From contig JAHISK010000055.1 of the NCBI GenBank assembly GCA_018818105.1, positions 4,781-68,780 of the forward strand: 64,000 nt of DNA, written 5' to 3'. The translations under genes and the position numbers were made by a program. The notes under the pieces are model-generated. The model was not told where the DNA came from and ran no database searches. It saw nothing but the letters and a program-made list of their open reading frames with translations. Positions 6,001 through 22,065 of the stretch are shown piece by piece. How positions within the stretch are numbered: the first letter of the stretch is position 1; every line of letters starts with the position of its first letter. The stretch comes from Candidatus Omnitrophota bacterium. GTDB taxonomy: Bacteria > Omnitrophota > Gorgyraeia > Duberdicusellales > 4484-171.

Positions 6001-9000
6001 ATTAATTTAAAAATGTTTAAATTGTGAATAACTTGCCTAGCTACTCTCTCTGCGACAAATTCATGAATAGCATCATCCACATGACAAGAAATAAATGAGT
6101 GGGCCTGCTCATGGCTCAATAAAGCGATAAAAATACCCTTTGATAACTCGTCATATTCCTCGATAGACAAACCTGCCTCAACAGCAAATTTTTGCATAAA
6201 ATTAATATATACTTGTATTGCGCCAATGCCCATTTCAAAAAGATGATTTATCTCATAAGAATCACTAAAATGAGAAAATAATAATATTCTATCTACCAAC
6301 GCCGTATATTCTTCTTTACTAAAACGAAAAGTTAAATTCTGATAAAATAATAAGACGGCTAATTGATAAATCTTATATTCTTTTTCTGCGAAAGGACTTT
6401 TTATTAAATTATCTAAACTTGGCATATGGCTTAATATCTCCTGAGCTTTATCTAATCCGGGTATTCCTAAATTATCAAAAATATTGTCTATATCCATCAG
6501 GTAAGCATAACATTCCTCTATTCCTTTTATATCCGCCGCTATATCTCTAATTATTTGTCTATCTTTCTCAACTTCCGCGTAGAAAATGTTAATAAACGCG
6601 CCAAACCCATATTTCTCAATAACATTAAGCACTCTTTTCTTTCCAAAGGGATATCTCTCAAATAATTCCTCAAACTTATCCCTAAATTTGTCAAAATCGA
6701 GCAAAACTACAATATATGTCTTAACATCTTTTTCCCACGCGCTATCCACAATATCTCTACCTAAAATTTTCTCTAAAGAACCTATAGCGCTACCTGCCGT
6801 TTCCAAAAATTCATCAACAAACTTCATTAAATCCACGCCAATAATTTCAACTACCTGAGCAAAGTTTTCCAAAAACACACAAGCCTTATCTAAATCCTTG
6901 AATAACTCTACTAATAAACCAAATCTATTTACCCCTATTTGCTTAATTAAACTTGCTGGAATCTTCTTATCTGAAGTTTCTATCCACGGCAACCTGATTT
7001 CTGGCGGCACTATCCCCCTGGGGCCATTTCTGACATTCCCATATTTTGCTAAATATTCTCCAATAGAATTAGGACTTCTGACATCTGACATATATTTTAC
7101 AATATATAATTTACCATCTATATCAATTGCAAAATTTGTTTCCTTTGTTGTTTCAACATAATACTCTATTTTCGACTCATTACTAAAATATTTCCCTCCG
7201 GAAACCTCCATAGCCTTTACAGGCTGCACATCTTCTCCAAAAGAATTACTTAAAACCAAAGTAACGACCCCATTGGAATCCACCCCTAACACAGCGTATA
7301 TCGGCATTAAAACAACATTGGGGTTCATACTTAAATAATCCCTCATCGCTTTACTTACAACAACAAATAAATCTTCTCCTTTTACAGGAGCAGATTCAAA
7401 TTTTAAAACATTGGCTATTATATAGGAAAGGAAAGATATTCTATTAACCGCATTTGAGGATACGATATTATCATTTTCATGGGAAGGAAGAATAAAAACA
7501 TTGGCAAATTCTCTACTCTGTTGACTATCAACTTTTGTACATAGACTATTCCCCGGAGGTCCATTAATAAATAAACCTGCCATTATTTTTTGTAATTTTT
7601 CATAAACAATATCTAAATTATCAATTAATACCTTTTGGTTCTCTGAATACACCTTATCTAATAAAACAAAAATAACCGGATTACCTCCCACTCCTTTTAT
7701 CGTTTCACCATTCACTGCTATCGCTGGTAAATTTTGAGGAATCCGCGAAACAGCCGCTCCACCTAACAACGCCACTACTACTATTTTATCTTGAATAAAA
7801 GGGATTTTCTTACTTCCAACACTACCATCCACCGAATTAGCGGCTACATCATCTTGATCTGCTTCTAAGTTCCCTGCTCCTTCAACACTTAAAACACCCT
7901 TACTTATTGAATCAACAAATTTAGCTAACTTCCCAGGGTTTTCCGTTTGAAAACCACTAATTGCTATTGTCTTACCATTACAGCTAACATCATTAGTACC
8001 TTGTGGAAATTCCAGGCTCCCGGCCCATATAATAAGGGGCTTATTATTGGGGTTTTCTTGGGGTTTTGAGCTTAAGAGCCCGGAATTATCACAAGAATCA
8101 TCTAACTTATTTAAAAAACAAATAATCGCGCAAACTGCCTTATTAATCATCTGATTATTATCCGTAGATACCATTGCTTTTACTAACTCTTGCGCTAACA
8201 TCGTCGACATTATCTCATTCTCATTTTCACTGCTATTTTTTTCATCTTTATTTTCCGTTTTATTCGACGTGTTTTTCCCAACTAAATTTTCTTTAGATGA
8301 ATCACCATTCCTATCCTTAGAAGAATAATCTGAATAAACACTTTCGCGAAAAGAAGATCCCGCTAATAGTTTATAGAATCTCCCCATTTTTTCACCAAAA
8401 ATAACCAAAGAACATATCGACTGACCTTTATCATTCTCAATAACTGTATTCACATCAAACTTATAATCTCCTTTACGGCTCAATAATACAGCATTTAAAA
8501 CTCTTTTTAAAATTTTAAGATCTTCTTTTTTATCATTCTTCGGAACATTAACTGAAACTGTTTTTGCTTTTTCTTGTTTAACAGAGTCCGTTGTTTCAAC
8601 CTCATCAAAACCATCAACAATTTTATTCGTATCATTTACTAACTGTTCAAAATCATCAATTAATTCATCCCCATCAGAAACACTATATCCAATCATCATA
8701 TTAATATTCTGTACCGCTATTTCTACTAAATAGCCCACAACTATATCTCCAAATGAACCCTGATCTACCACCTGACTAACATGGTAAGTAATTTCTGAAT
8801 CCTGGCCGCCAAAAATACTATCAATATAAGCGACTATACTTTCTAAATAAGTATCACCATTAACTCCCTCTAATTTATTTAAATTATTTATCGCCCAATT
8901 TGTTATATCTCCAATATCGCTACTATCATTAATAGAAGGCAAATCACTCTCTATGCTATTTGGACCTATTACTTGAGTTGTGCCCCTCATTTTCGACGGT

Positions 9001-12000
9001 AAAAAATTAACAACCGGTATCAACAACGGTATTTCTACCCTCGCATCAGATTCTTCATCATTTTCATTATACCCCTTCTGAGGGTTACCATTTAGCAATT
9101 CGTTTATTCTATTATCCGGATCATCCTCTTTATCATTAACCCCATCATCTATTTTTCTTCCTCTTACATTTGCCATAGCCTCCTCATCAAGGTTTTCCGC
9201 TTTACCTCTAACCGCAATTTCTTTATCCTTACTTATTAACGCGTTACCTGTCCAAAGTTCTAAAAACTTATCAAACTCAACTATTTTAGTTTTTCCGTTA
9301 TCTAAATATATAACGTTGCCTTCACTATCTACCCCTAAAAAAGTCACAAAGTGATCATCAAAATGAGCGATAAACGGCCCAATTTCTACTAAGACAGCTA
9401 ATAACTCTTGTTTTTGTTCCGTGGTAAGATTTTCTGTATTAAACTTTTTGCCGGAAAGGTCTATTCCCAACTCTTTAGCGGCGTTAAACATGCCTAACAT
9501 AGATATAGAAAACGACACTTGGCCATCTTCACCAACAACCTCTTCTGTAAACTCTAAAAGTAAATCAACTAAAACAGCCGGTAATTGGTCAGCGCTAACG
9601 CCTAAATCGCCGCCATTAATAATAAGGAAAGCGGATAAGGCGTTTACAGCGCAGTTATATCTCTTATCACCGACTTCGATTTTAAGCGTACGGCTAAGTT
9701 TTATATAATCCAACTGCGCGGCAATTGCTTGCGATTCTGTAGGTTGAGATTCATGAATGAAAAGTAAAACTATAAACTCATCTATTTCTTCCCGCTTATA
9801 TCCCGCGGCGTCAAGAACTTCTCGAATTTGTGACATATCTATATTAAAAACAATACGCCCCTCTTCTGTACGATAAAACGGAGGCGAGTTATTGCTAAGC
9901 CCTGTGTTATAATAATACTCTTCTAACGCCGCCAGCATTGTGCACCAATCTAATAATACTACCTTTGATTCATAATCCGGGTCATCTATCGCCACTATCC
10001 CAATTTGGTCTCTTATCTTTTGCGAATCAGCTAAATGCGCGATTGCCCCCTCTTCTTCAGGTATAAAAGCCACATTATCCGGTACGGGAACTGTTAAATC
10101 CGTATCTTTAGGCAGACGCGGATTAGAATCTTTATCAAACATAGCCGCGACCAATTCCCCTCCTTTACTTAATCCCGCGACAACCGCGGTTAACGGAGAA
10201 AGTATACGCATTAACAACGACGCTTTATACGCTGGGCCATAATTAATGTAATCGCCAGCCGCCTGCATTTGTACAGAAGTAAATACACCCATGCCCTGTT
10301 TATACCCTGTTACTACTTCTAAATGCTTATAAAACAATCCTTCCCATATATCTAAAATCTCTTCTTTATCAAAAATACCTTCAGCAGATAATTTATCGTT
10401 TAACTCAGCCGGTCCGCTAAATTTGTTCCATCTACCTGCACCTTGACTGCTGTCTGAAGCGTCTAAAACAATCACGCCGCAAGCGCAAAGCTGTTCCCAC
10501 TGACCTCTTTTGATAAAATAATCCCTGGAAACAAACATGTTTTCCGTAACAACGTCAGCTATAGTTTTTAAAGTAACTATACCTAAAATACTTTTCAGCC
10601 GCGGATTACTCTTAATATTTTTATTAACTAATTGTTTAAGCTCGTTTGAAGCAGCCGCAATTCTTTCCTGGCTTTCAGGGGAAATACCGCCGGAAACCAA
10701 TGAACTCGAAAACTCGGTCTTAATCACAAAAGAATAATATAATATCGCGAAGTAAGGCGCGATCTTTTCTCTAATATCATAACTAAGTTCTGGGAACAAC
10801 TTCTCATCGCCTAAAGCAGTGGCCAAATTAAAATGTTTACCGTCTCTCTCTGCTATCTGCCCTAATACCCCTACATAATTTTCAATATCACTTACCGCCA
10901 CAGTAGACACTCCTAACTCGCATAATTTATAAGCTATATCGGAAAACACATCCTGATATCCCTGATAAATACCTGTCATATTAGTTCCAAACTCTCTATT
11001 CTCAGGATATACGTCTGAATCCATCATATAAGCAACCACGCTTTGCCCCCAGGCGCTATACAGCTGCCGCGGTTCATATTCTTCTTCCGCCCTCTTATCC
11101 ATATCGATAGAATATTCAGGAATTGTCCTGCCAAACTGGCGAAGAACATCTCTCATCTGCGGAGTAATACCAGGAAATACTTCATTCACTGTCTTAATAA
11201 CTGGCTGCCCGCGATCATTCAAATCAACATAACAGGCATATTCAGTTTTATCAAAAATAATTGGCATTCCCCGCGGCGCGGGTTTTGCCAGAGCACCGGC
11301 GACATCAGTTTGAGATTGACTAACCGTCTCCGTAACTGAAATAGCCGACTTTAACCTCTCAACATCAGGCCGAGGTTCAACTATAGCAAACTCGCTTATA
11401 TCTCTTCCAAAAAAGACGTATGTCTTAATTGAACTATTTCTGGTATTCATCAACACGAAATCATCCGCGGCGGCAACTTTATCAATGACAATGATCTCAC
11501 CAAAACTAAACCTTACTTCTTCTTTACCGTCAATAGTCACTGTCTTCTTTAAAACTTCTCTAACTTCTAAATTACCCCTGCTGGTTTCACCGGTAACCTG
11601 CCACATTCTTGATACACTTAAATCCCCAGGATACTTACTGTATCCATAGGCAGCGTTAGATATAAGGCTTCCTATATTAATATTCTTTTCTAAATTCAAC
11701 TCGGGTCTTAAATATCTGCTGACAACAGTGATAATCGGGTTTTCTTCTTCCTGATAAAAATCATAATACCCGCTATCAAAATCAGGATGAGCAATTACAC
11801 CCGCCGGAACCCCTCCTTCCAACACAGCGCTTCCCGGCCCGGTAAGAACTGTCCCATCGCGTAAGGTCATAATAAAATTCATTACCCATCTTCTTAAAGC
11901 ATCAAGCCAATCTTCTCCAAAAAACCCAAAATAACTGCCTGTTCCCCGCTTCTTACTGCCATTCTGAGATAATAATAACCGCGTTGAATCATAATAACTG

Positions 12001-15000
12001 CTGCCGACAGTATAACTAGGATTATACGGCTGCCCCGCGCTCATTAAAATGCCGGTTTTTTCTGGCTTATTCTTACTATCTTTATCGTCAAAACTTTCCG
12101 CTAAATATCTTTCAAAATTACTATCTACAAACTTAAGCATCCCTTCAAAATCAATCCAAGCAACTCCTGAGGCCGGTTTAAACTCTTTTGACTCAACGGT
12201 TTTAACTACCAATTTACCTTCACTGTCCTCTGTTAAATAACTGGTTTGTCCGCCATTAATACCTAACACTAACACTTTGCGCCCATTTATCTCAACGTAT
12301 GTACCGCCAATAATACCTGCTATTTTATCCGCCGGTATTTTCTCCTTCACAGGTCCTTCCTTCCCCGCTCTAAAAATAGTAATACCATCATCATCCACAG
12401 ACACAACCGCCGCTTCTATTAATACACCATCCTGACTTATAATTAACCGTGCCGGATTCTGAGCAAGAACATTTCTCAATTTCTTCCCCGCGGTTTCACT
12501 TAAAGCGACCGCGCAATATGTACCGTCAATTTCTAAACTGCTGTTAAATGTATTTTTACCCCTAACTCTTTCTTTATAATTCCGCGCTGCTTGTTTTAAA
12601 TCTTGCGTTTTCTCACTACCATTAATATCCCTGTACACAAACTCAAACTTCGCCGTTTCCCAAAGACTCAAAATAGCGGCAACTTTATCCACGCTTAACT
12701 CACCCTGCCCAACAGCCGCTAACAAAACATCCGCGTCTCTTAACCTAGCAGTTAAATCCTCTCGCGTAAGAACACCGCTAATATTCCATAGAATAAACTC
12801 TTGACCGGCTTTCCCTTCAACCACTCTAACTACACCGCTATTAATTAACGCAGTTAATTCATTTTCTGTAATACTAGTTTTGTCGCAAAAATATTCTTTA
12901 TCATAATATTCAGCATTCACATCTATCACCGTGTTATTAAAAAATAAATCTAATCTTTTACCTTCACCGCTACGAGCCGGCGGCGGGTTGTATTTCCATT
13001 CACCATTATGGTAAGCCATTTCAAACAAGGCGGTAAACAATTCCTGACCGCTGCCGCCAATAGATGACGACGCTTTCACAAATCTGTATTGGCCAAAATT
13101 CGAAGAATTCGAATCAACATCTAACACAAACATCGGAGCCGTAATTCCTTCATCCACAGCAGATGAAATCAAACCGCGCCAAAATCTATTTTCCGGACGA
13201 TTTTTTCTTTCATTTTCACTCATCACCCCTTTATCATTCGTACCCCATTTATAATGAATTCCGTCAATAGTTTCTTCATTCACATACAAATCCGCGGCCG
13301 TAGGATCTTCTACCTCTGCCGCGCTAATAAGCCAATCTGTCAATAGAGTAGTACAATAACTCTGAAAGAAGTTAACAAATACATAGCCCAAGGTATCCTT
13401 TAAATATGTTTCCGTAATACTCGGCTTTTCATACCCTGCCATCTCAAGCTCAGCATTTTCTTTAACAAGGCTTTCACGATCTCTAAAAATAATTTCCTGA
13501 CCGTTATTATTAGAATCTATCTTAACCATCATATCATTAATTAACGCCTGAACTAAAACCATAGCAAATATGCGTAAAGCGTCATTATCCATTTCTTCGG
13601 CTAAATACATACCCGCGCCCTGCACTAAACCGGCTTGAATAATTTCTCCCCACAACTGGCTTAACTGCGCACCGTTTGCCGCCTGCATAGAAAGATTTCC
13701 GCCCGCAGGTCCAACACTGTAAGATATCCTCGCGAAAGCGTTAGAAAACCTTTCACTCCAAGGCCCTTCCGATACAGATAAACCAGCTTTTTCAGTTCCT
13801 TTCGGCGGTTTTTGATCATTATCAGTAGAAGCCAACATATAATTATTAACAGCCTCGATACACCACCTCAGGCCCCAAATGCCCATTCGTAACACTTGCG
13901 CCAGAGCCGCCGGTAAATAACTTAAATAAGCAAAATTACCCGCGTTGCTAACACAGGCTTTTACTATTTCATCTAAAAATTCAATTAGCTGAGTTAAAAT
14001 CTCGGCTATTCCATTAAGTATCTCTGAGACGATTTTATATACCCCATCAATAATTTCTCCTACAACAGGAATCATCCGTAATATAGTCATTGCTATAGTT
14101 ATAATCCAGCTATCGCCTGACTGATATATCGAATCCATAAACCCATCACCAAACGCTTCCCACATACTATCCGGTTTATCGTTTTCCTCTTCCAACCTAT
14201 GATCGTTACTGCCAGCCTCAACCGCATCTGAAGCGCTATCATTATCAAACTTATGCTGTATGTTATATGTCATAGCAGCTTTAGTTCCGGCAACCACCGC
14301 CGAAAACAGCGCCGCGCACAACGCCCCCACTAAAGCCGCCATCGGCGCCCCTAATGTTCCCGCGCTATAAATGGTAACTACCACCGCGATAACAATCGCG
14401 ACAATTATAATAATTATTGTCCATACCCACCACATAAGACCTTTATCAACATCAATGTTTTCCTCTTCATAATCAATCATATCTTTATCACTTTGAACAC
14501 GCGTAGTTTCAGCGCTGGAAGAAACAAATCCGCCTTCCAAATATGAAATAAACGATAACGGAAACAGCACAACACCAAGACAAAGGACTATCGCTGTCTC
14601 TGCTAAATCACCAATTATTTCTCCTAAATCACCGCCAATAAAATCTTCTACGGCTTCACCCAAATCATCAAAATCAACACCTAAAAACGTAGAGCTTGTC
14701 TCCTGATTCGAATAAGTATCAATCTCCTGACTGCAAATAGCTCCGCCTATATCCATAAAAGTCTCAGTTATTACATCCTGAACTTGAGTAGTAGTTTTCT
14801 TCGTAATACCTAAAAACCCGCTCTCTGTCTGTTTTCCATAATAATGGTTATGAGCATTCATCCACATAGCACAAAGAACAAGCGTGCCGAAGAAATACTT
14901 AAACTCCTGAACCGACTGATACCACAAATGATCATTAGACATACTTCCCGGACGGTAATACATCATCGTCTCAACCGCGGATTTACGCGGCCCGTTAAAC

Positions 15001-18000
15001 TTCACAAAATTATGGGCAATATGAGCCCTTTCTTTATCATCCGTTTGAATAGTAGCGTAATACGCCGCTTCTTTTCCGCTAAACGAATTACGCAGCATGC
15101 CAAACTGAACCGAAGGTTTCTCTTCTTCCAGCCTAGCCCTATCCGCCCGTTCTGTTATACCGCGCCAAGCATTAGCCGCGGCTGTTGAATCACCAGCTGC
15201 TATCGCTTGGCAATATTCTTCAGTGTAATTATTGAACTTCTCATCTTCATCGGCAAAAACCACATCTTCACTGCCAACTTTCACTTCCACGCCGCTGCCG
15301 CCGGGAGCGATAGAAATTTGCGCATCACCATTTTCAATCGCGCGCAATAACTTATTATAATAATCCACTTTAGCCGTATCATACCACGCGTGATGAGCCG
15401 CTAAATCAGCTATCTGCCTTGTCACCCAATCAACAGCTTCATCTAAATTATCAAAGTTACCCCTAAGATACGGTTTATCAGCCCAACTCCAGGTCATAAC
15501 AGAAAAACCAGCTACATCTAATATCTCCCAACGAATTGAAGATACCGTTCCCCAGCGAGGATCCCTTCCTACGGCTTCATCAACATACCCTTCCGTACTG
15601 CTAAGAACTAATCTATAATTACCTGTCGATAATACTGATTCCGTAATATGCGTAAAAATTTTACATCCATACGGTCCATACTCTTCTAATCCTTGATATT
15701 TATCAATAAGGCCTTCTTCAACAAACCGGTCATGATTAGCGTGCATAAACCGAACAAGACTAATCCAATTATAAGCCCCTGTTCCATAAGGTCCTAAATT
15801 ATATTCACTAGATTTTTCTTCGCCGTCATCACTAGACCGCGGATTCAGCATAAACGCCTGTTTAAGATTATTCCATGCCTGATCAATTTTTGTATAATTT
15901 CCAACAAGCTCATAATATGTTGTATCATACTCTTGCGTCTCTTGGTTATACTGATACTTCACCGCGTAAAAATGCTTAATTGTCAAAGTTGTAGTAGCTC
16001 CAACCACTTTCTTAATAGTTCCCCCGTTGCTGTCTAGAACTAATTCATATTGTAAAGTTATCTTGCCATCCCTCACATAAACAGATCCGTCATAAGATTC
16101 ACTGTACGTACCTAACTCATACCGTTTTCCTGTATTTTCATCTATATACCAGAAAGTATACGACCCAAGGTCAGTTTCACTACAATATGGCGGCGGATTA
16201 TATTCAAACTGAAGATTAACCGTTCTTTCTTCATTCCCTATCACTAAAATTGGCCTATCGGCAGGATCTGTAAGCACGTATTCTGATTGATATGGCATAT
16301 ATGTTACTTCCTCAGCGTTCTCATCAATAAACTTGGGAGAAATCTCAAAAACAGGCGACACAATATATATATCCTGAACCGTCATGCGCCGGGAACTTAC
16401 CGGCTGGCCAACAAACATATTCTTAATCGAGGTAAAATCTCCATCTCCAATTTCCCAATAACACGCCTTACCGGCCTTATCATAAGTAACCGCGTAATGA
16501 TGAATAGATTTCGTCCCATCTTCTTCTAAAACATACCCTGTAACTAAAACTCCTCTCCCGGAAGCGTCACATAAAACCTGTTCTTTTTCTTCAAGAGCGT
16601 CTATTTCCTCCGGTAAAGTTTCTGTCTTATTTATGCTATCAACCGCTAACGCGTTATCATTTGCCGCCACACCATCGCTATCATCACTAACAAACAATAC
16701 CGGTATTGTTCCATCAGGATTTGTCATCTCAACAGCATCATCATTCCACATTTCCAGTAGATCTGAATTAACCCCAAAATACGGTTTAGATTCATATCTA
16801 TCTTTTTTCGTACTCAAATATTCTCCGTACTCATCATAGATAAAAGTAATATGATTTTTCTCTATATAATGTTCTTCAGGTAAATCTACCACGCTATCAT
16901 TAAATTTTTGACCAAATTGATCTTCCGTTTCCACATAAATAGTTTCCTTATAACTGGCAATTTTCTCCCCTCTCTTACTGCCTTGTCCAACACGGCGATA
17001 TTTACTATCTTCTACAATTCTCCATGTCGCCGAACCTACTCCCACTATCTTATCTTGACTAACTTCATTATACGCCCCTAAGATAGCTTCTCTATTCTCA
17101 ACCCCGGCATCAATTAACTTTTCTTCTAAATCCTTACTATCAACAACATTCCAGACAATATAATCATTATAATCCCGAGGTTTTTCAATTATTTGCTCTT
17201 CCGTTAAAATATCAATATCTTCTTGAGAAATACCTCTATTTCCAAATTCCTCTTTAAGCGTAATTTTCTTTTCTTTAAATTCCTCACTTTTTGTCCTTGA
17301 AGAAACTACTTCAAACTTATCATCAAAATTAACATACTTAATATCATAAGTTGTATTTCTTTCTCTAATACAGCCTTCATTATTATCTCCCTTTAAACTT
17401 AAATCATAATTTAACGTAACCATTCCGCCGTCTTTATCGCTGTTAAACATATTATTATCATTATCAATATCTGTTGTGATATCTAATCCATTAACCTTTG
17501 CTACGATATACGCCATTGGACTAGAAAACCAAGTAGACTTAATTTCTGTTATCTGAAAAGCCTGACCCTCAAATTCACCCTCATCTTCATCCGTAGAAGA
17601 ATAATACTGATTAAATAAAAATTTAGTTTCGATTTTGTTATCTCTCTTACTTTTATAAGTTCTTAACCTTGTCACCTTAGTAGAACTACCCCATAATCCA
17701 CACTTTCTTCCCGTTCCCCCAGTATGTGAACTAGATACCCCTACACATACACCCGCTTCCGGATCACTTATACTGCTTTCATACATATCCCTAACATCTC
17801 TTGCGGAAATTGCTCCTTGAGATTCTGACCAATACTGATACTCATGAGTATCTGAATGACAAAAATGCTCCGTTGTTATATCTTTAGTATAATCATCCGT
17901 CATAATCATATACATCGGACTTTGTTCAGTCACCACGCAAGAAAGTAAAGGTTTCGTTGAATCTGGATCAGCCGCGCCTAGATTAGCATACATATCATTT

Positions 18001-21000
18001 CTAATTTTATCATCTGCCTCACCGGTAATCGCTTTTACTCCGGCAATGATTTCCGCCTCATTAGCTTTTATCTCATCTATAGAAAAATAATTATGCCCTT
18101 TAAGGGTTTTCGAATCAATAACAACTAAATTATAGTCACGCGATAAAAAATACTTAGTTTCCTTTTCTTGATAATCAACTAATCCGCCGGCATCATTATA
18201 CGTATACTCTATACTTTCTGAATAGGTAAACTCTCCTATATTACTCATTGCTTCCACTAACCCCATATTTAAATCCGCGGCATTATTTAAATTTAAATAC
18301 GGATTTGCCCCGGATAAAATTTGACTAAACGGTGTATGTTCTTCAATAACACCCCCGTCTTCTTCTTCAGAATTTACAAATTCAATAACTTCTGAATTAT
18401 TAAGCATATAACCAATCACTGCCTTAAAATCACTAATTGTCATATTTTTAATAGTTTCTTCAAAATCAGCAAATCCCGGATGAAAATCTTCTTTCACCTG
18501 AGCCAACATTGCCGGTAATTCATTTGCAAATCTCTGCAAACTTAAATCAATTTTGTTATAATTCTTTACATCCGGATCATCTGACAACTCTTCCACAAAT
18601 ACCTTATAACAATCTATATTATCAATTCCGGTTTGTCCTCCCGCTACCCACAATACATCCCCTTTCTGTTCAATTGCACCCAAACTAGTGCTTGACCACC
18701 TCACATTACGCCGAAACGGTTTACCTTCCGGCGCAAATTCTATCCCTAAATAAACCAAATATGATAACATATTAGTTATCTGTCTCGATAATTTGCTCCT
18801 AGTTAACAAATCTTTAACTTCCTGCGGCCAATTCGCCTCATCTTCAGGAAAAAACTGCTCTCCATTAAAATGCTCACTTACTCTAGCTGTCAACGCTAAA
18901 ACAATAGGCCCATAATCAATATTAAAGCTTAATTTTTTATTATCTATAATTGCTCCTAAATTATTAAACTGAACATATTTCCAAGTTTTAGCAATAAAAT
19001 CTGATTGCCATATACAAACATCAATTTTAAACTCTTCTTCTCCCGGCGTACCGCTCAAAAGATAAGTTTCCTGCAAAAAATCATGCGGACGCTCAACAAT
19101 TGAAACCATCTTCCCTCTACTATAATTCCTATCCCACATAAACTCTTGACCCAAAATATAACCTTCTTCTTTATTAATTCCCTGCTTCACTAAAAAATCT
19201 TTTACATAATCTAAATCACTTTGATCTGCCTGCGTACCTTCTTGAATTCCTCTTAACATTAAAAGTAAAAGATCTAAATTCCCCATATCTGTTCTTGACT
19301 GAAGACCTTCGTTATCCAACTCATTAAAAAAACAACTAAAATCAACGACATATAATTCACCATCAATAAAAATAAAAGCCGTAATATAACGCATATCATT
19401 TATTGAAATTTCATAGCTAAAATAATCATCCAGCCAATTTGACGTAGTATATCCCGGATCCATACCCCAAGCATCAGTAAATACAATATTCACATTTGAG
19501 CCAACCGCTCCGGCTTTTATATCTTTCATTTCAGGATTAGTAAGTTTTCTCGGTCCTGCTTCCGATTCCTTTACACTGCCGCGAGTTGCTAACCCTGTAC
19601 CCTGCCAATAACAAGTATCTCCCTCTTCAGTAGTAAAACGGTAAGAAATATTACCTTCATCAGTAGTAACCGTATCAGCAATGGCTTTAACTTCTTCGCC
19701 ATTACTTATATAGGTAAAAGCGCCTGTTTCTAAATTAACATCAACTACCCTGATATAATGCCCACGGCCATCAGCAAGAGTAACATGAGCTATAAATACA
19801 CCGTCTCGTGCTAACGTATCAGCAATATTTTCCAGATTTAAACCTGTAAATCCGTCTAAATCATACCCTAAAATACCCGCGTTTTCCTGTAGATTATCCA
19901 TAGTAGTCATGCCATCGCTGTCAATCAAAGGATTGGCGGCAACTGGTAAGTCTCCATTAGGAGTTAACCCCTCTAATATATAGGTAGCACAATTTGCATC
20001 ATTTACATTGAAAATAGTAGTTATAGGATTTATGGAAGTGCTTATAGGAAGAGTATCATTAACTGTATCATTAGTAGGCGGTCCGCGGGAACTAATACTA
20101 GTATAGGTAATCTGATTAAGAACCGTATCAGGATTTAAACCAAAGCTTCCCTCTGGACAATCATTATTTACTTCATTTAGATAGAAGAATAGAGTTGTTT
20201 GGTCGTTGGCAGGATTAACTGTATCAACAATATCAAAAACAATATCATTTTTTTGAGGAAGTTCGCTGGCAGGAGGACCATTACTAGGCATTATATTGTT
20301 ATATATATCAATTGGTTTTTTACTATCTGTGTTTTCTATTGTAAAAAGGCTATTTGTGTTCAATACTGGAGAATACCCTTGAGAAACCATATCATATTGA
20401 GAACCAGCATATTCCTGCTGATATCCGCCGATATCATCGCTGATAGGAACCTCTGATACACTCGCTCCCACACCGACTAAATTATCAACAATATCATCAT
20501 TATTTGAATTGGCCAATACGTCTTCATTTGCCGGCGCAATATCTTCATAAACTACTGATTCCGGCTCTACTGTAATAACAGGCACCTCTGTATCAGCATC
20601 AGCAACAATCTGCTCAGCCGCTTCCACAACACGCTGATCTTGGCAATAATAAAAATACGTTGTTAATACTTCTAAATAATCATTAATTACACCTTGATTT
20701 TGAGTTAAGACATTATCATTTGTAATAATACTACCATCAGAAACATCAGTATCACCAACAGTATCATCATTCTCTTCTATGCCAAATTCGCCCTGTTTTC
20801 CTCTAATCGGAGCCACAGGCAAAACCGCGACAAAAGGCTCAGAGGTCGGTAAAACTGCTGTGGTTGCCTGATTTTCTACATCAGAAACTTGTGTATCAAT
20901 CCCATAAATCCTAGCAACGAATTCCATAAAATTAGTTCGTTCCTGCGCGGAAAGGTCAATAACAACCGGGGACTGCTTAATTTGTGTAATCACAGCTTCC

Positions 21001-21515
21001 GCGGCTATTGTGCTAGGATCACCATTTAACTGTCTCATTAATCGCCACATAACCGTATCATCAGCACTTGCCGACGGAAGAAGAAGATTTATAATTCCCT
21101 GAAACAATCCTTTTAAACTGCTTTTATTCGTAGATGCCTTCGGCGAAAAACGTTCAGAAAGCTGTTTATATACTTGAAATAAAAGTTCGGGATTAGTCTT
21201 TAATTCTGTGATTTCTTCTTGCGTAAAGGGTAATTTAGATAATTCTTCAATGATTTTATCTATTGGAAGGAGATTCTTTAAATTCTGAATATTGGCCTTT
21301 GCAAGAAGAGGAATATCTAAACTGCCGCTTCTAGCCCAGGCAACATTAGATATAATAAGCGAAAAAGACAAAAATAACGCGATAATCCTCATCCAAGGTT
21401 TAACCCGCGGTTTCTGCAAATCGCTTACAGACAAAAAGCCGTCCTCTTGATTATTCTTATTAGAAAAATCTTGAGGATTTAAATTATTTATATTATTAGG
21501 TCTTCCCTCGCCCAT
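1..21515 (-). CDS. Giant secreted/membrane protein, partial (C-terminus beyond window start; >=7,170 codons in window). N-terminal signal peptide (MRIIALFLSFSLIISNVAWA), internal TM helices encoded ~14285-14460, C39-like papain-fold peptidase domain encoded ~9270-9720
   Basis: The ORF track lists no minus-strand ORF between 1 and 22657, only short antisense plus-strand ORFs. My own reverse-complement read from the ATG at 21515 (MGEGRPNNINNLNPQDF...) stays open over the N-terminal ~460 codons, and spot checks of the same phase at 3-122 and 4500-4540 show no stops; continuity across the remaining ~20 kb is inferred from the track, not read codon by codon. A GGAAG ribosome-binding site lies upstream. 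An alternative start at internal MRII... would give a classical signal peptide. The TM segment WWVWTIIIIIVAIVIAVVVTIYSAGTLGAPMAALVGALCAALFSAVVAG is read from 14285-14460, and the C39-like motifs ...KRYNCAVNALSAFL... and ...IAHFDDHFVTFLGVD...YLDNG... from 9270-9720. Confidence 0.7.
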   Translation of the reverse strand, partial: MGEGRPNNINNLNPQDFSNKNNQEDGFLSVSDLQKPRVKPWMRIIALFLSFSLIISNVAWARSGSLDIPLLAKANIQNLKNLLPIDKIIEELSKLPFTQEEITELKTNPELLFQVYKQLSERFSPKASTNKSSLKGLFQGIINLLLPSASADDTVMWRLMRQLNGDPSTIAAEAVITQIKQSPVVIDLSAQERTNFMEFVARIYGIDTQVSDVENQATTAVLPTSEPFVAVLPVAPIRGKQGEFGIEENDDTVGDTDVSDGSIITNDNVLTQNQGVINDYLEVLTTYFYYCQDQRVVEAAEQIVADADTEVPVITVEPESVVYEDIAPANEDVLANSNNDDIVDNLVGVGASVSEVPISDDIGGYQQEYAGSQYDMVSQGYSPVLNTNSLFTIENTDSKKPIDIYNNIMPSNGPPASELPQKNDIVFDIVDTVNPANDQTTLFFYLNEVNNDCPEGSFGLNPDTVLNQITYTSISSRGPPTNDTVNDTLPISTSINPITTIFNVNDANCATYILEGLTPNGDLPVAANPLIDSDGMTTMDNLQENAGILGYDLDGFTGLNLENIADTLARDGVFIAHVTLADGRGHYIRVVDVNLETGAFTYISNGEEVKAIADTVTTDEGNISYRFTTEEGDTCYWQGTGLATRGSVKESEAGPRKLTNPEMKDIKAGAVGSNVNIVFTDAWGMDPGYTTSNWLDDYFSYEISINDMRYITAFIFIDGELYVVDFSCFFNELDNEGLQSRTDMGNLDLLLLMLRGIQEGTQADQSDLDYVKDFLVKQGINKEEGYILGQEFMWDRNYSRGKMVSIVERPHDFLQETYLLSGTPGEEEFKIDVCIWQSDFIAKTWKYVQFNNLGAIIDNKKLSFNIDYGPIVLALTARVSEHFNGEQFFPEDEANWPQEVKDLLTRSKLSRQITNMLSYLVYLGIEFAPEGKPFRRNVRWSSTSLGAIEQKGDVLWVAGGQTGIDNIDCYKVFVEELSDDPDVKNYNKIDLSLQRFANELPAMLAQVKEDFHPGFADFEETIKNMTISDFKAVIGYMLNNSEVIEFVNSEEEDGGVIEEHTPFSQILSGANPYLNLNNAADLNMGLVEAMSNIGEFTYSESIEYTYNDAGGLVDYQEKETKYFLSRDYNLVVIDSKTLKGHNYFSIDEIKANEAEIIAGVKAITGEADDKIRNDMYANLGAADPDSTKPLLSCVVTEQSPMYMIMTDDYTKDITTEHFCHSDTHEYQYWSESQGAISARDVRDMYESSISDPEAGVCVGVSSSHTGGTGRKCGLWGSSTKVTRLRTYKSKRDNKIETKFLFNQYYSSTDEDEGEFEGQAFQITEIKSTWFSSPMAYIVAKVNGLDITTDIDNDNNMFNSDKDGGMVTLNYDLSLKGDNNEGCIRERNTTYDIKYVNFDDKFEVVSSRTKSEEFKEKKITLKEEFGNRGISQEDIDILTEEQIIEKPRDYNDYIVWNVVDSKDLEEKLIDAGVENREAILGAYNEVSQDKIVGVGSATWRIVEDSKYRRVGQGSKRGEKIASYKETIYVETEDQFGQKFNDSVVDLPEEHYIEKNHITFIYDEYGEYLSTKKDRYESKPYFGVNSDLLEMWNDDAVEMTNPDGTIPVLFVSDDSDGVAANDNALAVDSINKTETLPEEIDALEEKEQVLCDASGRGVLVTGYVLEEDGTKSIHHYAVTYDKAGKACYWEIGDGDFTSIKNMFVGQPVSSRRMTVQDIYIVSPVFEISPKFIDENAEEVTYMPYQSEYVLTDPADRPILVIGNEERTVNLQFEYNPPPYCSETDLGSYTFWYIDENTGKRYELGTYSESYDGSVYVRDGKITLQYELVLDSNGGTIKKVVGATTTLTIKHFYAVKYQYNQETQEYDTTYYELVGNYTKIDQAWNNLKQAFMLNPRSSDDGEEKSSEYNLGPYGTGAYNWISLVRFMHANHDRFVEEGLIDKYQGLEEYGPYGCKIFTHITESVLSTGNYRLVLSSTEGYVDEAVGRDPRWGTVSSIRWEILDVAGFSVMTWSWADKPYLRGNFDNLDEAVDWVTRQIADLAAHHAWYDTAKVDYYNKLLRAIENGDAQISIAPGGSGVEVKVGSEDVVFADEDEKFNNYTEEYCQAIAAGDSTAAANAWRGITERADRARLEEEKPSVQFGMLRNSFSGKEAAYYATIQTDDKERAHIAHNFVKFNGPRKSAVETMMYYRPGSMSNDHLWYQSVQEFKYFFGTLVLCAMWMNAHNHYYGKQTESGFLGITKKTTTQVQDVITETFMDIGGAICSQEIDTYSNQETSSTFLGVDFDDLGEAVEDFIGGDLGEIIGDLAETAIVLCLGVVLFPLSFISYLEGGFVSSSAETTRVQSDKDMIDYEEENIDVDKGLMWWVWTIIIIIVAIVIAVVVTIYSAGTLGAPMAALVGALCAALFSAVVAGTKAAMTYNIQHKFDNDSASDAVEAGSNDHRLEEENDKPDSMWEAFGDGFMDSIYQSGDSWIITIAMTILRMIPVVGEIIDGVYKIVSEILNGIAEILTQLIEFLDEIVKACVSNAGNFAYLSYLPAALAQVLRMGIWGLRWCIEAVNNYMLASTDNDQKPPKGTEKAGLSVSEGPWSERFSNAFARISYSVGPAGGNLSMQAANGAQLSQLWGEIIQAGLVQGAGMYLAEEMDNDALRIFAMVLVQALINDMMVKIDSNNNGQEIIFRDRESLVKENAELEMAGYEKPSITETYLKDTLGYVFVNFFQSYCTTLLTDWLISAAEVEDPTAADLYVNEETIDGIHYKWGTNDKGVMSENERKNRPENRFWRGLISSAVDEGITAPMFVLDVDSNSSNFGQYRFVKASSSIGGSGQELFTALFEMAYHNGEWKYNPPPARSGEGKRLDLFFNNTVIDVNAEYYDKEYFCDKTSITENELTALINSGVVRVVEGKAGQEFILWNISGVLTREDLTARLRDADVLLAAVGQGELSVDKVAAILSLWETAKFEFVYRDINGSEKTQDLKQAARNYKERVRGKNTFNSSLEIDGTYCAVALSETAGKKLRNVLAQNPARLIISQDGVLIEAAVVSVDDDGITIFRAGKEGPVKEKIPADKIAGIIGGTYVEINGRKVLVLGINGGQTSYLTEDSEGKLVVKTVESKEFKPASGVAWIDFEGMLKFVDSNFERYLAESFDDKDSKNKPEKTGILMSAGQPYNPSYTVGSSYYDSTRLLLSQNGSKKRGTGSYFGFFGEDWLDALRRWVMNFIMTLRDGTVLTGPGSAVLEGGVPAGVIAHPDFDSGYYDFYQEEENPIITVVSRYLRPELNLEKNINIGSLISNAAYGYSKYPGDLSVSRMWQVTGETSRGNLEVREVLKKTVTIDGKEEVRFSFGEIIVIDKVAAADDFVLMNTRNSSIKTYVFFGRDISEFAIVEPRPDVERLKSAISVTETVSQSQTDVAGALAKPAPRGMPIIFDKTEYACYVDLNDRGQPVIKTVNEVFPGITPQMRDVLRQFGRTIPEYSIDMDKRAEEEYEPRQLYSAWGQSVVAYMMDSDVYPENREFGTNMTGIYQGYQDVFSDIAYKLCELGVSTVAVSDIENYVGVLGQIAERDGKHFNLATALGDEKLFPELSYDIREKIAPYFAILYYSFVIKTEFSSSLVSGGISPESQERIAAASNELKQLVNKNIKSNPRLKSILGIVTLKTIADVVTENMFVSRDYFIKRGQWEQLCACGVIVLDASDSSQGAGRWNKFSGPAELNDKLSAEGIFDKEEILDIWEGLFYKHLEVVTGYKQGMGVFTSVQMQAAGDYINYGPAYKASLLMRILSPLTAVVAGLSKGGELVAAMFDKDSNPRLPKDTDLTVPVPDNVAFIPEEEGAIAHLADSQKIRDQIGIVAIDDPDYESKVVLLDWCTMLAALEEYYYNTGLSNNSPPFYRTEEGRIVFNIDMSQIREVLDAAGYKREEIDEFIVLLFIHESQPTESQAIAAQLDYIKLSRTLKIEVGDKRYNCAVNALSAFLIINGGDLGVSADQLPAVLVDLLLEFTEEVVGEDGQVSFSISMLGMFNAAKELGIDLSGKKFNTENLTTEQKQELLAVLVEIGPFIAHFDDHFVTFLGVDSEGNVIYLDNGKTKIVEFDKFLELWTGNALISKDKEIAVRGKAENLDEEAMANVRGRKIDDGVNDKEDDPDNRINELLNGNPQKGYNENDEESDARVEIPLLIPVVNFLPSKMRGTTQVIGPNSIESDLPSINDSSDIGDITNWAINNLNKLEGVNGDTYLESIVAYIDSIFGGQDSEITYHVSQVVDQGSFGDIVVGYLVEIAVQNINMMIGYSVSDGDELIDDFEQLVNDTNKIVDGFDEVETTDSVKQEKAKTVSVNVPKNDKKEDLKILKRVLNAVLLSRKGDYKFDVNTVIENDKGQSICSLVIFGEKMGRFYKLLAGSSFRESVYSDYSSKDRNGDSSKENLVGKNTSNKTENKDEKNSSENENEIMSTMLAQELVKAMVSTDNNQMINKAVCAIICFLNKLDDSCDNSGLLSSKPQENPNNKPLIIWAGSLEFPQGTNDVSCNGKTIAISGFQTENPGKLAKFVDSISKGVLSVEGAGNLEADQDDVAANSVDGSVGSKKIPFIQDKIVVVALLGGAAVSRIPQNLPAIAVNGETIKGVGGNPVIFVLLDKVYSENQKVLIDNLDIVYEKLQKIMAGLFINGPPGNSLCTKVDSQQSREFANVFILPSHENDNIVSSNAVNRISFLSYIIANVLKFESAPVKGEDLFVVVSKAMRDYLSMNPNVVLMPIYAVLGVDSNGVVTLVLSNSFGEDVQPVKAMEVSGGKYFSNESKIEYYVETTKETNFAIDIDGKLYIVKYMSDVRSPNSIGEYLAKYGNVRNGPRGIVPPEIRLPWIETSDKKIPASLIKQIGVNRFGLLVELFKDLDKACVFLENFAQVVEIIGVDLMKFVDEFLETAGSAIGSLEKILGRDIVDSAWEKDVKTYIVVLLDFDKFRDKFEELFERYPFGKKRVLNVIEKYGFGAFINIFYAEVEKDRQIIRDIAADIKGIEECYAYLMDIDNIFDNLGIPGLDKAQEILSHMPSLDNLIKSPFAEKEYKIYQLAVLLFYQNLTFRFSKEEYTALVDRILLFSHFSDSYEINHLFEMGIGAIQVYINFMQKFAVEAGLSIEEYDELSKGIFIALLSHEQAHSFISCHVDDAIHEFVAERVARQVIHNLNIFKLIENQIIIEAWEKVSLYGMYSVAKEGNSMVTGKYETAFAQLEWIESHPIDENTFSDSAVDIVRGYPNMKFGDFLRQLLITYRLRLNGFMLSVPKAYKEMNIIERIYSPVSYLMVSPDEISSILYWPIDCFYKKDNSFFRVNWEVTSGDPITEFNNNKEKAVGLLTKYGLVPEDIEFRYGTVAGVQLFINRVDDSSQPDKLIICCSPAVVEYLKQNFSGEELPVVLAAVILEEYLEKTGKPHLEAREVRMAFLAGYDKEITNKILKLESLAALEWMISGEDKMNSDPFKEGEKNSRSNANLPNPKDEHPFDKFSFGPGNFSSQICDPSFKPLLSDFQRNFLVAFFNLIEDFNESIGSGIGEFLTKDFGKGYNGHNLLSFLLLPQVYHVILDLSRVYDYSGNMGGGYGWPNILANPCSTDLCSTAGLEQGLIDNQVSDIQTGNNGNISGPVTFGNGTSTTFPSGTRYGDGSGVSNNSCQSSAISSQQEINTNNSSREQTADSRKPINISGLTIPTSPNKVESGSFYFSTHAQPESKVVNSFELTQLQEVLKITRDLSGPEKSSLHEAFAIWDEIAGENIKNTNGVEDVEDISGNTLKEAIDAKAKITFLACDMKEVMRILDPGVSYEYIDALTIGGARLGQGRDVKGKLIIVLLDQSIFAEDKFEYLMSALGHEFGGNVWFAIKDRVMEDKYIGNSALRRAYMEQLSFGQNCNNLRQLKSRLERRKKEVPSEWLSEIESMIAGVDERLKIEEKSFAVWKSQYVSIREKGGVSLPNQPVKDDSGDCTVGVLWDSFKDRMPTCFISSVAAGLFKGKDKKQRMISSEDINHVGFYGSAKEKVSENVFPITLGRESLGWASVVMSLKSPIDISGDEFVKVYVKFNSEKDKLGIPRARLMFFDDKWNRFDIVAASVKGELEGDCFVFDLKKLDIYRLFDFDKSRVVHIGLGIGDDSLSRGAYLGIEEGRKAMIEDLDCQVNIEKVVFLKQGDEKVGIPTIEGLLKEFEEYRNDNADVNNLIDKHGQDQVISLLDRAVLEDGSNQVYLSLARTVEARPELAKQLSEEAVAKLLKVYKQNVSDWKKTLLSKGVISAREIVSRGQRITLLNNIESVLVCLSENSPLVVSRIYEELGDSYNYRVRKIFGWIDSPKELAVAQWVINAADKINERSQKLGFETRISPAFLYSAAIGEGFGLRMNTKGYYKFADKNEYWAEISDMIGMHHWLDSIQVELGEVKAVGLLDKDVQVTKDIPGSQFKTGQEALDILAAFLVYRGEKFVKNAERILGKGQVSRMSAIERDFWTYAFYNGPSAAMSMLSQRKGRTAEDFMRVDGDNDNMWNSVKCNAVRVVSQEEALYKLGVFAGEKEEKQSKANSVLGKIASIINWAFSFVGSAEAGPGEAVKLADYDNRDMSGVCSEMISQKGVYADVNYKLGPDGWIEIEKYMSSPQRYNVSNGDELINVVVVGAKVYGYTNTEDIIINLGASSVIRKPLEDAEDDVDVEADNRRNVIGVMQVDCDLGVACYKIYYDDEKYLGRLSFSLGQDGFLVYKDHQNPISYKPTLQDGEALESVSWDLEVAELYLETSNRKIAVDMLISKVLKDEIKTDSDIKLNNSERGLIRIKCNRSDVSKNDWEEVPYLNEVFNSNSHKGVGASHGRIIFCSDEGIDSVEFMLDAQAAVSFEPVNYWQAYIYSRLRNIMGDKFREERSRKENIGIRNVLPETEVVEEEVEYWQNELDNYEVNQEWIENVYEVNQEWIENVYEVNQEWIENVSASESRYMGRAIDYNRAMPGVALNVAEKEANTKASQWSSLKIVDFNEINKNFTLAIDWLLTKYSHNEVSSFLEYVSRSGKTRAGPSEYLHSAFIPGKGWFINEKETENPFQLSLSFIHEFGAYLGQSHEDNLANEKEFAQTFMRTHPVFANLSVNFDKKIYSLGVTKYEYDVKSEEMIFHFDAATQAMIKANLPYDALPYALKQFNPSALIVVPDQDAKWMLAGSAQAQDYVDDSKGG
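717..824 (-). repeat. Perfect 3 x 36-bp tandem repeat inside the giant ORF, encoding (VYEVNQEWIENV) x3
   Basis: The unit aacattttctatccattcttggttcacttcata is repeated three times head-to-tail. The antisense ORF 683..886 shows the same periodicity. Confidence 0.9.
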
Positions 21516-21534
21516 ATCTTTTTTACTTCCGGCA

Positions 21535-21572
21535 TAAAAAAAAGCCGGGTTACCTTTTGAGGTAACCCGGCT
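21535..21572 (-). terminator. Intrinsic terminator / attenuator hairpin (perfect 12-bp stem AGCCGGGTTACC/GGTAACCCGGCT, loop UUUUGA, then U8) about 20 nt upstream of the giant-gene start codon
   Basis: Plus strand reads aaaaaaaagccgggttaccttttgaggtaacccggct. On the minus strand this is a hairpin followed by TTTTTTTT and then ATGCCGGAAGTAAAAAAGATATGGGC. Confidence 0.6.
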
Positions 21573-21599
21573 ATCCTGAATCAATTTTGTACCGAAAGA

Positions 21600-21740
21600 C
21601 GATAGATGTCCGTTCTCTACATCGCTCGGACGATAAACGTTCTTATACTCTCGTTTTTCGTCCTTCGTCTTACATCCTTCGTTACTAGGACCCGTGGCTT
21701 TGCGCCTCCCGATTACTCGAGATTTGCCATTTCTGAAAAA
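21600..21740 (-). ncRNA. Candidate c-di-GMP-I (GEMM) riboswitch aptamer in the 5' leader of the giant gene
   Basis: The minus-strand leader reads AAAUGGCAAAUCUCGA-GUAA-UCGGGAGGCGCAAAGCCACGGGUCC. This resembles the remembered Vc2 consensus GGCAAACC-stem-GNRA-stem-GGGACGCAAAGCC-nCGGG, including a 6-bp stem capped by a GNRA tetraloop. A terminator lies immediately downstream. Not run through a covariance model. Confidence 0.35.
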
Positions 21741-21777
21741 GCGTTAAACTCTAATTATTGTTGTCAAATCGTAGTTA

Positions 21778-21806
21778 AATATACCACACTAATCTAATGT
21801 TTTCAA
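21778..21806 (-). promoter_or_regulatory. Sigma70-like promoter for the giant-gene leader (-35 TTGAAA, 17-nt spacer, extended -10 TGgTATATT) on the minus strand
   Basis: The reverse complement of 21761-21810 reads ttgcTTGAAAacattagattagtgTGgTATATTtaactac. Confidence 0.4.
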
Positions 21807-21839
21807 GCAAAAATAAGCTTTTTTTTAAAAAAAATTCAA

Positions 21840-21920
21840 TATTTTACTAAATGATATTGTTATGATTCGGCTTGATATCGTTATGATATTGTTATGATAT
21901 CATTGTGATGCTGTATCATA
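21840..21920. repeat. Array of ATGATAT / GTTATGATAT iterons and ATGATATCAT palindromes between the divergent giant-gene and RAYT promoters
   Basis: Sequence reads aaatgatattgttatgattcggcttgatatcgttatgatattgttatgatatcattgtgatgctgtatcata. Confidence 0.5.
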
Positions 21921-22065
21921 CAAATTCACCACCTAAAAAGATCCTCATATAACCATATCATAACCATGGTAGACGTCCCTAAAGGAGGGCCCTATAAAAA
22001 ATTTTAAAAATTTGAAAGAAAAACACCTTCTCATTCGTCTATTATATAAGAGGGTGAAATTCACA

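Follow-up and report, generated by a model that had tools for sequence, protein, structure and literature searches.

A c-di-GMP-I riboswitch with a predicted antitermination platform in front of a giant Omnitrophota gene

We describe a cyclic di-GMP (c-di-GMP) riboswitch of class I, also known as GEMM-I, that lies in the leader of a giant gene in a Candidatus Omnitrophota bacterium. The DNA analysed is a stretch of 64,000 nucleotides (nt) of contig JAHISK010000055.1 (assembly GCA_018818105.1, positions 4,781 to 68,780), referred to here in its entirety as the window. Elongation factor EF-G of the window is 100% identical to a protein from an Omnitrophota metagenome-assembled genome at NCBI, and the roughly 100 named best matches that come after it are labelled Omnitrophota or Omnitrophica. 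The 3' half of the aptamer doubles as the 5' arm of an intrinsic terminator, and elements of the same design are conserved in front of related large, signal-anchored proteins at other loci. A c-di-GMP-dependent antitermination (ON) switch for this giant signal-anchored Omnitrophota protein is in our view the likeliest mechanism, and one that we hold with good confidence. An earlier reading made from the letters alone (the sequence-only reading) had proposed a candidate c-di-GMP-I riboswitch at this place, and we follow here what became of that proposal.

The leader carries a c-di-GMP-I aptamer

We ran Rfam cmscan over the whole 64-kb window and rescanned positions 21400-22000 permissively. RF01051 (c-di-GMP-I) was the sole family above its gathering score in the 64 kb, with a match at 21738..21558 on the minus strand that reaches 54.7 bits where the gathering score is 35 (E 6.2e-8) and covers model positions 1-87 of 87. 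In the permissive scan RF01051 was still the best match of its clan, with an E-value of 5.8e-10 for the 600-nt region alone; a match to L20_leader (25 bits vs a gathering score of 58.7) was carried by the terminator and was rejected. By covariance model, the window element is a genuine c-di-GMP-I riboswitch, as the sequence-only reading had suspected, and as an RNA it is an ordinary member of the well-known class RF01051. The prokaryotic genome annotation pipeline (PGAP) uses Rfam, and the GenBank record may already carry an automated label for the riboswitch. The parts of the leader that matter for the argument are:

21733..21742, minus strand: candidate 5' strand of helix P1, GCUUUUU-C-AG, suggested by the aptamer-enforced fold and by the P1 of the RF03167 consensus structure
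21558..21738, minus strand: c-di-GMP-I (GEMM-I) aptamer, full-model match to RF01051, key nucleotides taken from the alignment
21702..21727, minus strand: first aptamer hairpin (P1a), a 6-bp stem with a GNRA tetraloop and two closing pairs
21689..21699, minus strand: 5' strand of helix P2, A-GCC-[A]-CGGGUC, with 10 of 10 standard pairs to 21575-21564
21576..21688, minus strand: distal P2 extension of 113 nt, between the last and first P2 pairs (Rfam counts a 102-nt insertion)
21561..21575, minus strand: shared switching segment, consisting of the P2 3' strand GAU-AG-CCGGGUU and A-C92-C, defined by the alignment and the overlap with the terminator
21536..21572, minus strand: intrinsic terminator AGCCGGGUUACCU/CAAA/AGGUAACCCGGCU, 13 bp plus U-tract, found by terminator scan and dominating the unconstrained minimum-free-energy (MFE) fold

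The minus strand at 21731-21688 reads AAAUGGCAAA-UCUCGA-GUAA-UCGGGA-GG-CGCAAAGCC-ACGGGUCC. The sequence-only reading had located this core correctly, with one 'UC' duplicated in its transcription; it also had the 5' half of the aptamer right, and missed the 3' half, which lies 113 nt further on, after the P2 extension. P1a pairs UCUCGA with UCGGGA over 6 bp (21722-21717 with 21712-21707) under a GUAA (GNRA) tetraloop at 21716-21713, and its closing pairs are G21727-C21702 and C21726-G21703. All 18 modelled aptamer pairs are standard in the window sequence, and every conserved junction nucleotide is intact. A P1 helix may form as well: in the aptamer-enforced fold, AG at 21734-21733 can pair with CU at 21561-21560, and UUUUU/AAAAG prolongs the helix. 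Its 3' partner, CU-C-AAAAGGU at 21561-21552, spans the terminator loop and the beginning of the terminator's 3' arm.

The equivalents of the ligand-contact nucleotides, in the numbering of the Vibrio cholerae aptamer Vc2 and placed by the model alignment, are all present: G20 at 21728, A47 at 21701, and C92 at 21562. We take A47 to be the intercalating ligand-contact residue of the Vc2 structures. G20 and C92 are reported guanine contacts, G20 being replaced by A in GEMM-Ib, which senses cyclic GMP-AMP (cGAMP) (PMC6140456). With all three nucleotides in place, and an A rather than a G at the A47 position, the element is predicted to be a canonical c-di-GMP sensor. We rejected its membership of GEMM-Ib, for the window has a G at 21728 where that group is defined by an A (PMC6140456).

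Membership of RF03167 (c-di-GMP-I-GGC), a family of the same clan and fold that is the best model for many relatives of the window element, was rejected too: the window's CGCAAA keeps A47 where the consensus has CGCGAA, and 54.7 bits falls below the cut-off of 59. Among the relatives, RF03167 scored above cut-off for L082, L016, L070, L010, L051, L058, L136, L149, L147, and others (L numbers are our handles for loci) despite an A at the position that defines the variant. RF03167 models the P1 helix, which RF01051 leaves unpaired. We think that this modelling of P1, together with a narrower seed, lets RF03167 outscore RF01051, an annotation pitfall.

The sequence-only reading had named homologous leaders lacking the core as evidence that would refute it. 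Related leaders retain GCAAAGCC, and their stems have changed in compensatory fashion. In 21 related cores the share of cells that pair is 97.6%, which drops to 30-44% on sliding the partners, and the P1a stem shows compensatory changes at all six of its six pairs. In the cores of L159, L161, and L163, GGUAAA...CACAAAGCC replaces GGCAAA...CGCAAAGCC, giving GGUAAA...CACAAA; this swap exchanges C-G for U-A, a double compensatory change, at a closing pair that does not vary among the other 21 sequences.

Aptamer and terminator compete for one strand

The terminator stem (21572..21543) has 13 pairs, eight of them G-C, and a 4-nt loop, and it runs into eight U at 21543-21536. Two terminator-like sites were observed in the region, where 0.6 were expected. 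The hairpin with its U8 run and its role as expression platform before the giant ORF had both been called correctly from the letters; what had been missed is that a single RNA segment serves both as 3' half of the aptamer and as 5' arm of the terminator. The twelve nt at 21572-21561, AGCCGGGUUACC, belong both to the aptamer (P2 3' strand plus C92 tail) and to the terminator 5' arm, which corresponds to aptamer model positions AGCcggGcUgCC. Because of this overlap the two structures are mutually exclusive, and mutual exclusivity predicts a transcriptional ON switch in which c-di-GMP allows read-through. No separate antiterminator would be needed, since 21575-21561 itself forms the terminator 5' arm. 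The competitor that the sequence-only reading had sought for the 21543-21572 hairpin is thus the aptamer's own P2 3' strand with the C92-equivalent segment.

We compared the two structures by constrained folding. For a nascent RNA that ends at the aptamer 3' end, the aptamer-consistent fold (-48.3 kcal/mol) lies within 1.2 kcal/mol of the MFE fold (-49.5 kcal/mol). For an RNA that extends through the U-tract, the terminator fold reaches -69.7 kcal/mol, against -53.1 kcal/mol with the aptamer enforced.

In the mechanism that we propose, transcription would start near 21771, and the nascent RNA would expose in order the GUAA hairpin, the long P2 extension, and the P2 3' strand with its C92 tail (21575-21561). 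Binding of c-di-GMP at G20 (21728), A47 (21701), and C92 (21562) would lock P2, and probably the short P1 too. In the locked aptamer, AGCCGGGUUACC would be unavailable to GGUAACCCGGCU, which would emerge 6 nt later, and RNA polymerase would run on past the U-tract and enter the giant ORF with its 7,171 or more codons. When the ligand is absent, the perfect 13-bp terminator would displace the weaker P2, and transcription would stop at 21543-21536.

The long P2 extension is a recurrent feature

The unusual part of the window aptamer is its P2 extension. Folded alone (-27.8 kcal/mol), it forms a long stem that has CGAAGGAUG/CGUCUUUCG as its closing strands and contains two hairpins. We considered whether the true 3' half might lie inside the insertion and rejected this: nothing like AGCNNNGNUNCC occurs there, and the best Infernal alignment uses the distal strand. 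A survey of one genome per GTDB species for GEMM-I cores with 100-130 nt between their halves gave at least 118 loci, 21 of them with 10 of 10 P2 pairs across the gap. Rfam aligns 15 of the 20 long-gap loci tested as single aptamers of 139-183 nt. Five loci (L065, L105, L003, L109, and L153), for which Rfam prefers a nearer 3' half, were left out of the long-P2 count. Hosts of long P2 elements include Omnitrophota (L020, L092, L100, L111), metagenome-assembled genomes labelled Planctomycetia (L036, L059), Chloroflexota (L010, L016, L051), Bacillota (L070, L082), and others, and further long aptamers were found at L146, L155, L124, and L158. In Rfam terms, P2 extensions of 70-120 nt are common in aptamers scoring 46-74 bits from several phyla. 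No sequence is common to the insertions; most of them fold into long, imperfect hairpins by which P2 is lengthened. Since they are placed distally to the binding junction, ligand recognition need not be altered by them. Judged by these comparisons, the long P2 extension is a recurrent feature and not a defect.

In many of these extensions the 5' arm is made up of tandem repeats with a unit of about 7 nt, and the 3' arm of repeats complementary to them. Autocorrelation at lag 7 reaches a z of 5-9 in eight loci from Chloroflexota, Bacillota, and Omnitrophota (L010, L016, L051, L054, L070, L082, L015, L092), and the mean autocorrelation over 32 P2 insertions peaks at lags 7 and 14. In the window the signal is weak (z 2.4; ACGAAGG/AUGUAAG/ACGAAGG/ACGAAAA/ACGAGAG). 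A separate arrangement was seen at L065, where four tandem Rfam-scored c-di-GMP-I aptamers lie within about 700 nt (1728-2442, minus strand); the contig is binned as 'Methanosarcinales archaeon' and is probably bacterial and mis-binned.

Related riboswitches precede large signal-anchored proteins

1..21515, minus strand: 5' part of the giant ORF, at least 7,171 amino acids, open to window position 1 and running off the window

The giant ORF that the sequence-only reading had named is open from 21515 to the window's edge. The protein has an N-terminal signal-anchor (VKPWMRIIALFLSFSLIISNVAWA, residues 38-61) and C39-like papain-fold domains at residues 537-608 (weak, 14.4 bits) and 3951-4133. 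We judge it to be signal-anchored and probably surface-exposed. In the 7,171 residues available, no Pfam domain exceeds its cut-off, the only match being the weak one to C39 peptidases. A small hidden Markov model built from the C39 domains of relatives matches residues 537-608 weakly (NCATY...FIAHV...GHYIRVV), BLASTP of this N-proximal C39-like region against L036 was not significant, and NCBIfam has no model for the N-terminal region. Orthologues of the N-terminus were absent from a genome-contig scan. With the first 1,200 residues as query, a word search of 5.8 billion proteins returned only the self fragment P0001, and HMMER against 1.84 billion representatives returned self fragments and one weak local match; tblastn of the giant protein found nothing in our first locus set, and in the second it picked up the C39-like region of L157 alone. 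With no orthologous leaders at hand, riboswitch-first and motif-first sampling were used instead.

ORFs downstream of related riboswitches share with the window ORF the N-terminal signal-anchor motif (FKPWMRvvAF) and C39-like domains. Their N-termini begin with a short hydrophilic head, continue with F/V-K/R-P-W-M/I-R-V/I-V/I-A-F/L, and pass into a hydrophobic helix. The core of the motif reads as follows:

window: KPWMRIIA
L020 and L099: KPWMRVVA
L036: KPWMRIVA
L155: RPWIRGIA
L153: RPFIRVIA
L157: KAWIRVVA
L147, L125, L130, and L135: KLWFK(I/V)VA

Most motif-bearing ORFs leave their contigs at 1,100 to 2,300 amino acids or more, and three of them have a Pfam C39 domain above cut-off. In the riboswitch-first test, which took 101 aptamers including the window's and the motif [KR]x[WF][MIFL][RK][VIG][VI]A, ten aptamers precede motif ORFs. 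An overlapping ON-type terminator accompanies all ten, compared to 26 of the 91 others. L157 adds an eleventh motif-bearing ORF behind a c-di-GMP-I aptamer. In metagenomes, a strict pattern with P2 and receptor fixed and the insertion variable found no loci, and a looser core pattern found 39. The protein-first test worked in the opposite direction: a profile of eight N-termini recovered 25 short N-terminal fragments, and DNA was obtained for seven loci. A c-di-GMP-I clan match above gathering score lies 40-260 nt upstream, on the same strand, in six of the seven, and each of these six aptamers has the overlapping terminator. The seventh contig, L162, has no aptamer, and its called gene overlaps an ATP-synthase ORF.

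The element appears to mark a conserved regulon. More broadly, an ON-type c-di-GMP-I leader may be conserved across a family of very large to giant secreted or membrane-anchored proteins (FKxW(I/M)R(V/I)(V/I)AF plus an N-proximal C39-like domain) in Omnitrophota and neighbouring groups, with c-di-GMP licensing giant-gene transcription alongside the PilZ and GGDEF elements known from the surroundings of such genes, and with long P2 extensions, often of heptad repeats, that are functional and not neutral, for instance by giving P2 a kinetic head start over the terminator. We put this wider proposal forward tentatively, as a serious possibility that falls somewhat short of a probable one.

Several loci carry further aptamers. 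The contig of L099, with its KPWMRVVA-type large ORF, has a second long-P2 c-di-GMP-I riboswitch (L096, 1500-2044, minus strand) that precedes two small ORFs with Flp/Tad-pilin-like N-termini (MRVKSKKAQSIIEY... and MRNKKTQSIIEY...). The sequence of this contig suggests a c-di-GMP riboswitch regulon that would cover pili and large surface proteins. The KLWFK(I/V)VA loci have a second c-di-GMP-I aptamer of 95-155 nt, which lies some 2.5 kb away from the first one, on the other strand:

L147, 3202-3355: second aptamer
L125, 5286-5440: second aptamer
L130, 2074-2168: second aptamer
L135, 3230-3384: second aptamer

Weighing the ON switch against its alternatives

Several observations weigh against an ON switch as we propose it. 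Once the U-tract has been transcribed, the terminator fold is 16.6 kcal/mol more stable than the aptamer-enforced fold, and only 6 nt separate completion of the aptamer from the terminator 3' arm, so that switching must be kinetic, with ligand binding that is both tight and fast. The linker of P1 has 4 nt where the RF03167 consensus structure has 5 (4-nt linkers also occur in four relatives, L149, L138, L157, and L124), the tail reads ACCUCA instead of the usual (A/G)CCGAA, and 54.7 bits is below the score of many relatives (60-74 bits). The region shows no excess of promoter-like sites, with 6 observed where 7.1 would be expected. The giant protein has no detectable orthologue and therefore no orthologous leader that could be compared. 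The covariation seen in helix 3 is biased, because the patterns used to gather the comparative sets prescribe parts of the core, and the protein-first sample is mostly one L157-like subfamily, L160 having about the same sequence as L157, and L158 being close to L155.

These points have to be set beside what other explanations would require. The aptamer could be real and act with another polarity or at another level, as an OFF switch through some other pairing or mainly on translation through GGAAG. c-di-GMP-I OFF switches have been characterised experimentally, for example Cd1 (PMC9262584), and in one unconstrained fold the region upstream of the terminator pairs with AUGCCGGAAG. An OFF switch, however, needs an antiterminator that the bound aptamer sequesters, whereas here the aptamer 3' strand is itself the terminator arm, and this overlapping design is conserved in relatives. 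For translational control by sequestration of the ribosome-binding site, constrained ensemble folding gave no support, with no useful difference in GGAAG/AUG accessibility between aptamer-enforced and terminator-enforced ensembles. We find a different polarity or level very unlikely. That the GEMM-I fold has another natural ligand, such as 3'3'-cGAMP or the unknown ligand of a variant class, strikes us as very unlikely. Specificity variants do exist (GEMM-Ib with its A at position 20, RF03167, and RF03168), and many relatives score best against RF03167, yet in the window the G20, A47, and C92 equivalents are all canonical, no model of the clan matches better than RF01051, and the gene for a canonical GGDEF (GGEEF) enzyme is not far off. 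The RF03167-best loci themselves carry CGCAAA or CACAAA, with an A at the A47 position (L082 and all core sequences inspected); their assignment reflects competition between similar models and not a variant nucleotide.

A decayed or non-responsive aptamer, in a leader that acts as a constitutive attenuator because the P2 insertion has disabled switching, would fit the low score, the 4-nt linker, and the ACCUCA tail mentioned above, the interruption of P2 by 113 nt, and an IS200-like ORF next door. Against it, the conserved junction nucleotides and the 18 pairs have all been retained, extensions of this size are common among aptamers with similar scores and are distal to the binding junction, and a 13-bp/U8 terminator that acted constitutively would be a costly dead end for a gene exceeding 21 kb; we give this account little credence. 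A chance resemblance to GEMM-I beside an ordinary terminator might have been suspected, the region being AT-rich and the motif having first been matched without a database search, but it is already effectively refuted by the full-length structural match (E 6e-8 in the window, 5.8e-10 in the 600 nt), by the covariation among related cores, and by the presence of the same element before related genes.

Promoter, translation start, and neighbouring genes

The remaining features of the window that bear on the proposed switch are:

21778..21806, minus strand: candidate sigma-70-type promoter, TTGAAA-17-TATATT with TG extension, 10 of 12 consensus matches, argued from its position
21513..21530, minus strand: ribosome-binding site GGAAG (21530-21526) and ATG (21515-21513), start of the giant ORF
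62391..63587, plus strand: GAF-GGDEF diguanylate cyclase, GGEEF motif at 63324, Pfam GGDEF 164 bits

The promoter string, the ribosome-binding site, and the start codon are where the sequence-only reading had placed them, and by its position the promoter is presumably the one used. Its estimate of a leader of about 210 nt was too short: the U-tract ends about 236 nt into the leader, and the ATG is reached after about 256 nt. The GGEEF diguanylate cyclase that it had noticed in the window is likewise there, so the organism can make c-di-GMP; the cyclase is not physically part of the switch. The view that c-di-GMP control of such a protein would make biological sense has gained from this cyclase, from a signal-anchored and probably surface-exposed target, and from the association conserved at other loci.

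The window genes upstream of the giant gene encode WD40, HlyD, TolC-like, and RND proteins. Two small genes for '23S rRNA intervening sequence'/bAvd-like four-helix proteins (27497-27853 and 32652-33041, minus strand) are interleaved with the RND efflux pump genes in the operon upstream of the giant gene. An ORF at 22012-22617 (plus strand), situated between the WD40 gene and the promoter of the giant gene, has a borderline match to an IS200-like Y1 transposase (23.4 bits vs a cut-off of 23). A strong terminator-like hairpin lies inside it at 22349-22320 (minus strand), so this ORF call may be doubtful. An 11-nt tandem repeat of 5.5 copies (ATGATATCGTT, plus strand) occupies 21851-21909, 45-100 nt upstream of the giant-gene -35 element, and could be a regulator-binding array or the remnant of a mobile-element end.

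A probable link between c-di-GMP and giant genes

The giant genes of Omnitrophota are a current puzzle, since they come from uncultured bacteria and encode proteins mostly without recognisable domains. The giant-gene papers that we searched are silent on expression control. The word 'riboswitch' is absent from West-Roberts et al. 2023, from the 2026 complete-genome preprint, and from Seymour et al. 2023, and a search for literature joining Omnitrophota, di-GMP, and riboswitch returned only unrelated ComFB work. What is new here is this apparently unreported link of a c-di-GMP-I riboswitch to Omnitrophota-type giant genes, the ON-type platform having experimental precedents already. A riboswitch can be tested without cultivation and would offer a first testable clue to the regulation of a gene of more than 21 kb. 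Where giant genes are fragmented in metagenomes, the conserved pairing of riboswitch and signal-anchor also makes their 5' ends simple to find. Finally, the riboswitch would place giant genes in one c-di-GMP network with PilZ proteins, GGDEF enzymes, and Tad-type pili, a network that fits the roles in attachment or predation proposed for giant proteins.

Comparison with known systems

The window aptamer resembles Vc2, the RF01051 prototype, in its two hairpins, in the order GGCAAA...GNRA hairpin...CGCAAAGCC...AGCCGGGUUACC, and in all contact nucleotides. It differs in the 113-nt distal extension of P2, where the consensus has a loop of about 8 nt, and in its tetraloop, which is GUAA and not GAAA; it has a plain P2 helix at the place of the GAAA receptor and a P1 linker of 4 nt. 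With its GUAA loop and receptor-less P2, the window element presumably corresponds to the 'type 2' GEMM of the original papers.

The closest precedent for the wiring is the pilM GEMM-Ib riboswitch of Geobacter metallireducens, an ON switch in which aptamer and terminator are mutually exclusive, the terminator sequesters C75 (the C92 equivalent), and ligand binding prevents termination (PMC9262584). The window shares this arrangement, while the pilM element has an A at the G20 position, senses 3'3'-cGAMP, and controls pilus genes, and the window has a G and a giant signal-anchored protein. As for the target, the c-di-GMP-I riboswitch Bc2 of Bacillus thuringiensis is an ON switch acting on termination before the adhesin gene cap (collagen adhesion protein), which is de-repressed at high c-di-GMP (PMC4933901). 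Bc2 is thus alike in being a c-di-GMP-I ON switch with a large surface protein as target, and unlike in its Gram-positive host and its ordinary-sized, cell-wall-anchored adhesin.

Omnitrophota giant genes have been described as encoding domain-poor N-termini with a C39-like peptidase domain near a predicted signal peptide, and a connection to c-di-GMP has been suggested on the strength of GGDEF domains within giant genes and of PilZ genes that follow downstream (West-Roberts et al. 2023, bioRxiv 10.1101/2023.11.21.568195). In the window, the 7,171 residues of the giant ORF contain no match to SecA_DEAD, and the upstream genes are WD40, HlyD, TolC-like, and RND, unlike the locus resembling a type II secretion system upstream of the published giant genes. 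Elsewhere in the motif family, two members (at L159, with the gene at 1-60, and on the contig of P0126) are preceded by a T2SSF-family gene, in agreement with the secretion-system locus of the published genes. In its Omnitrophota host, its very long ORF, its domain-poor N-terminus, its signal peptide, and its C39-like domain, the window gene matches the published description of giant genes.

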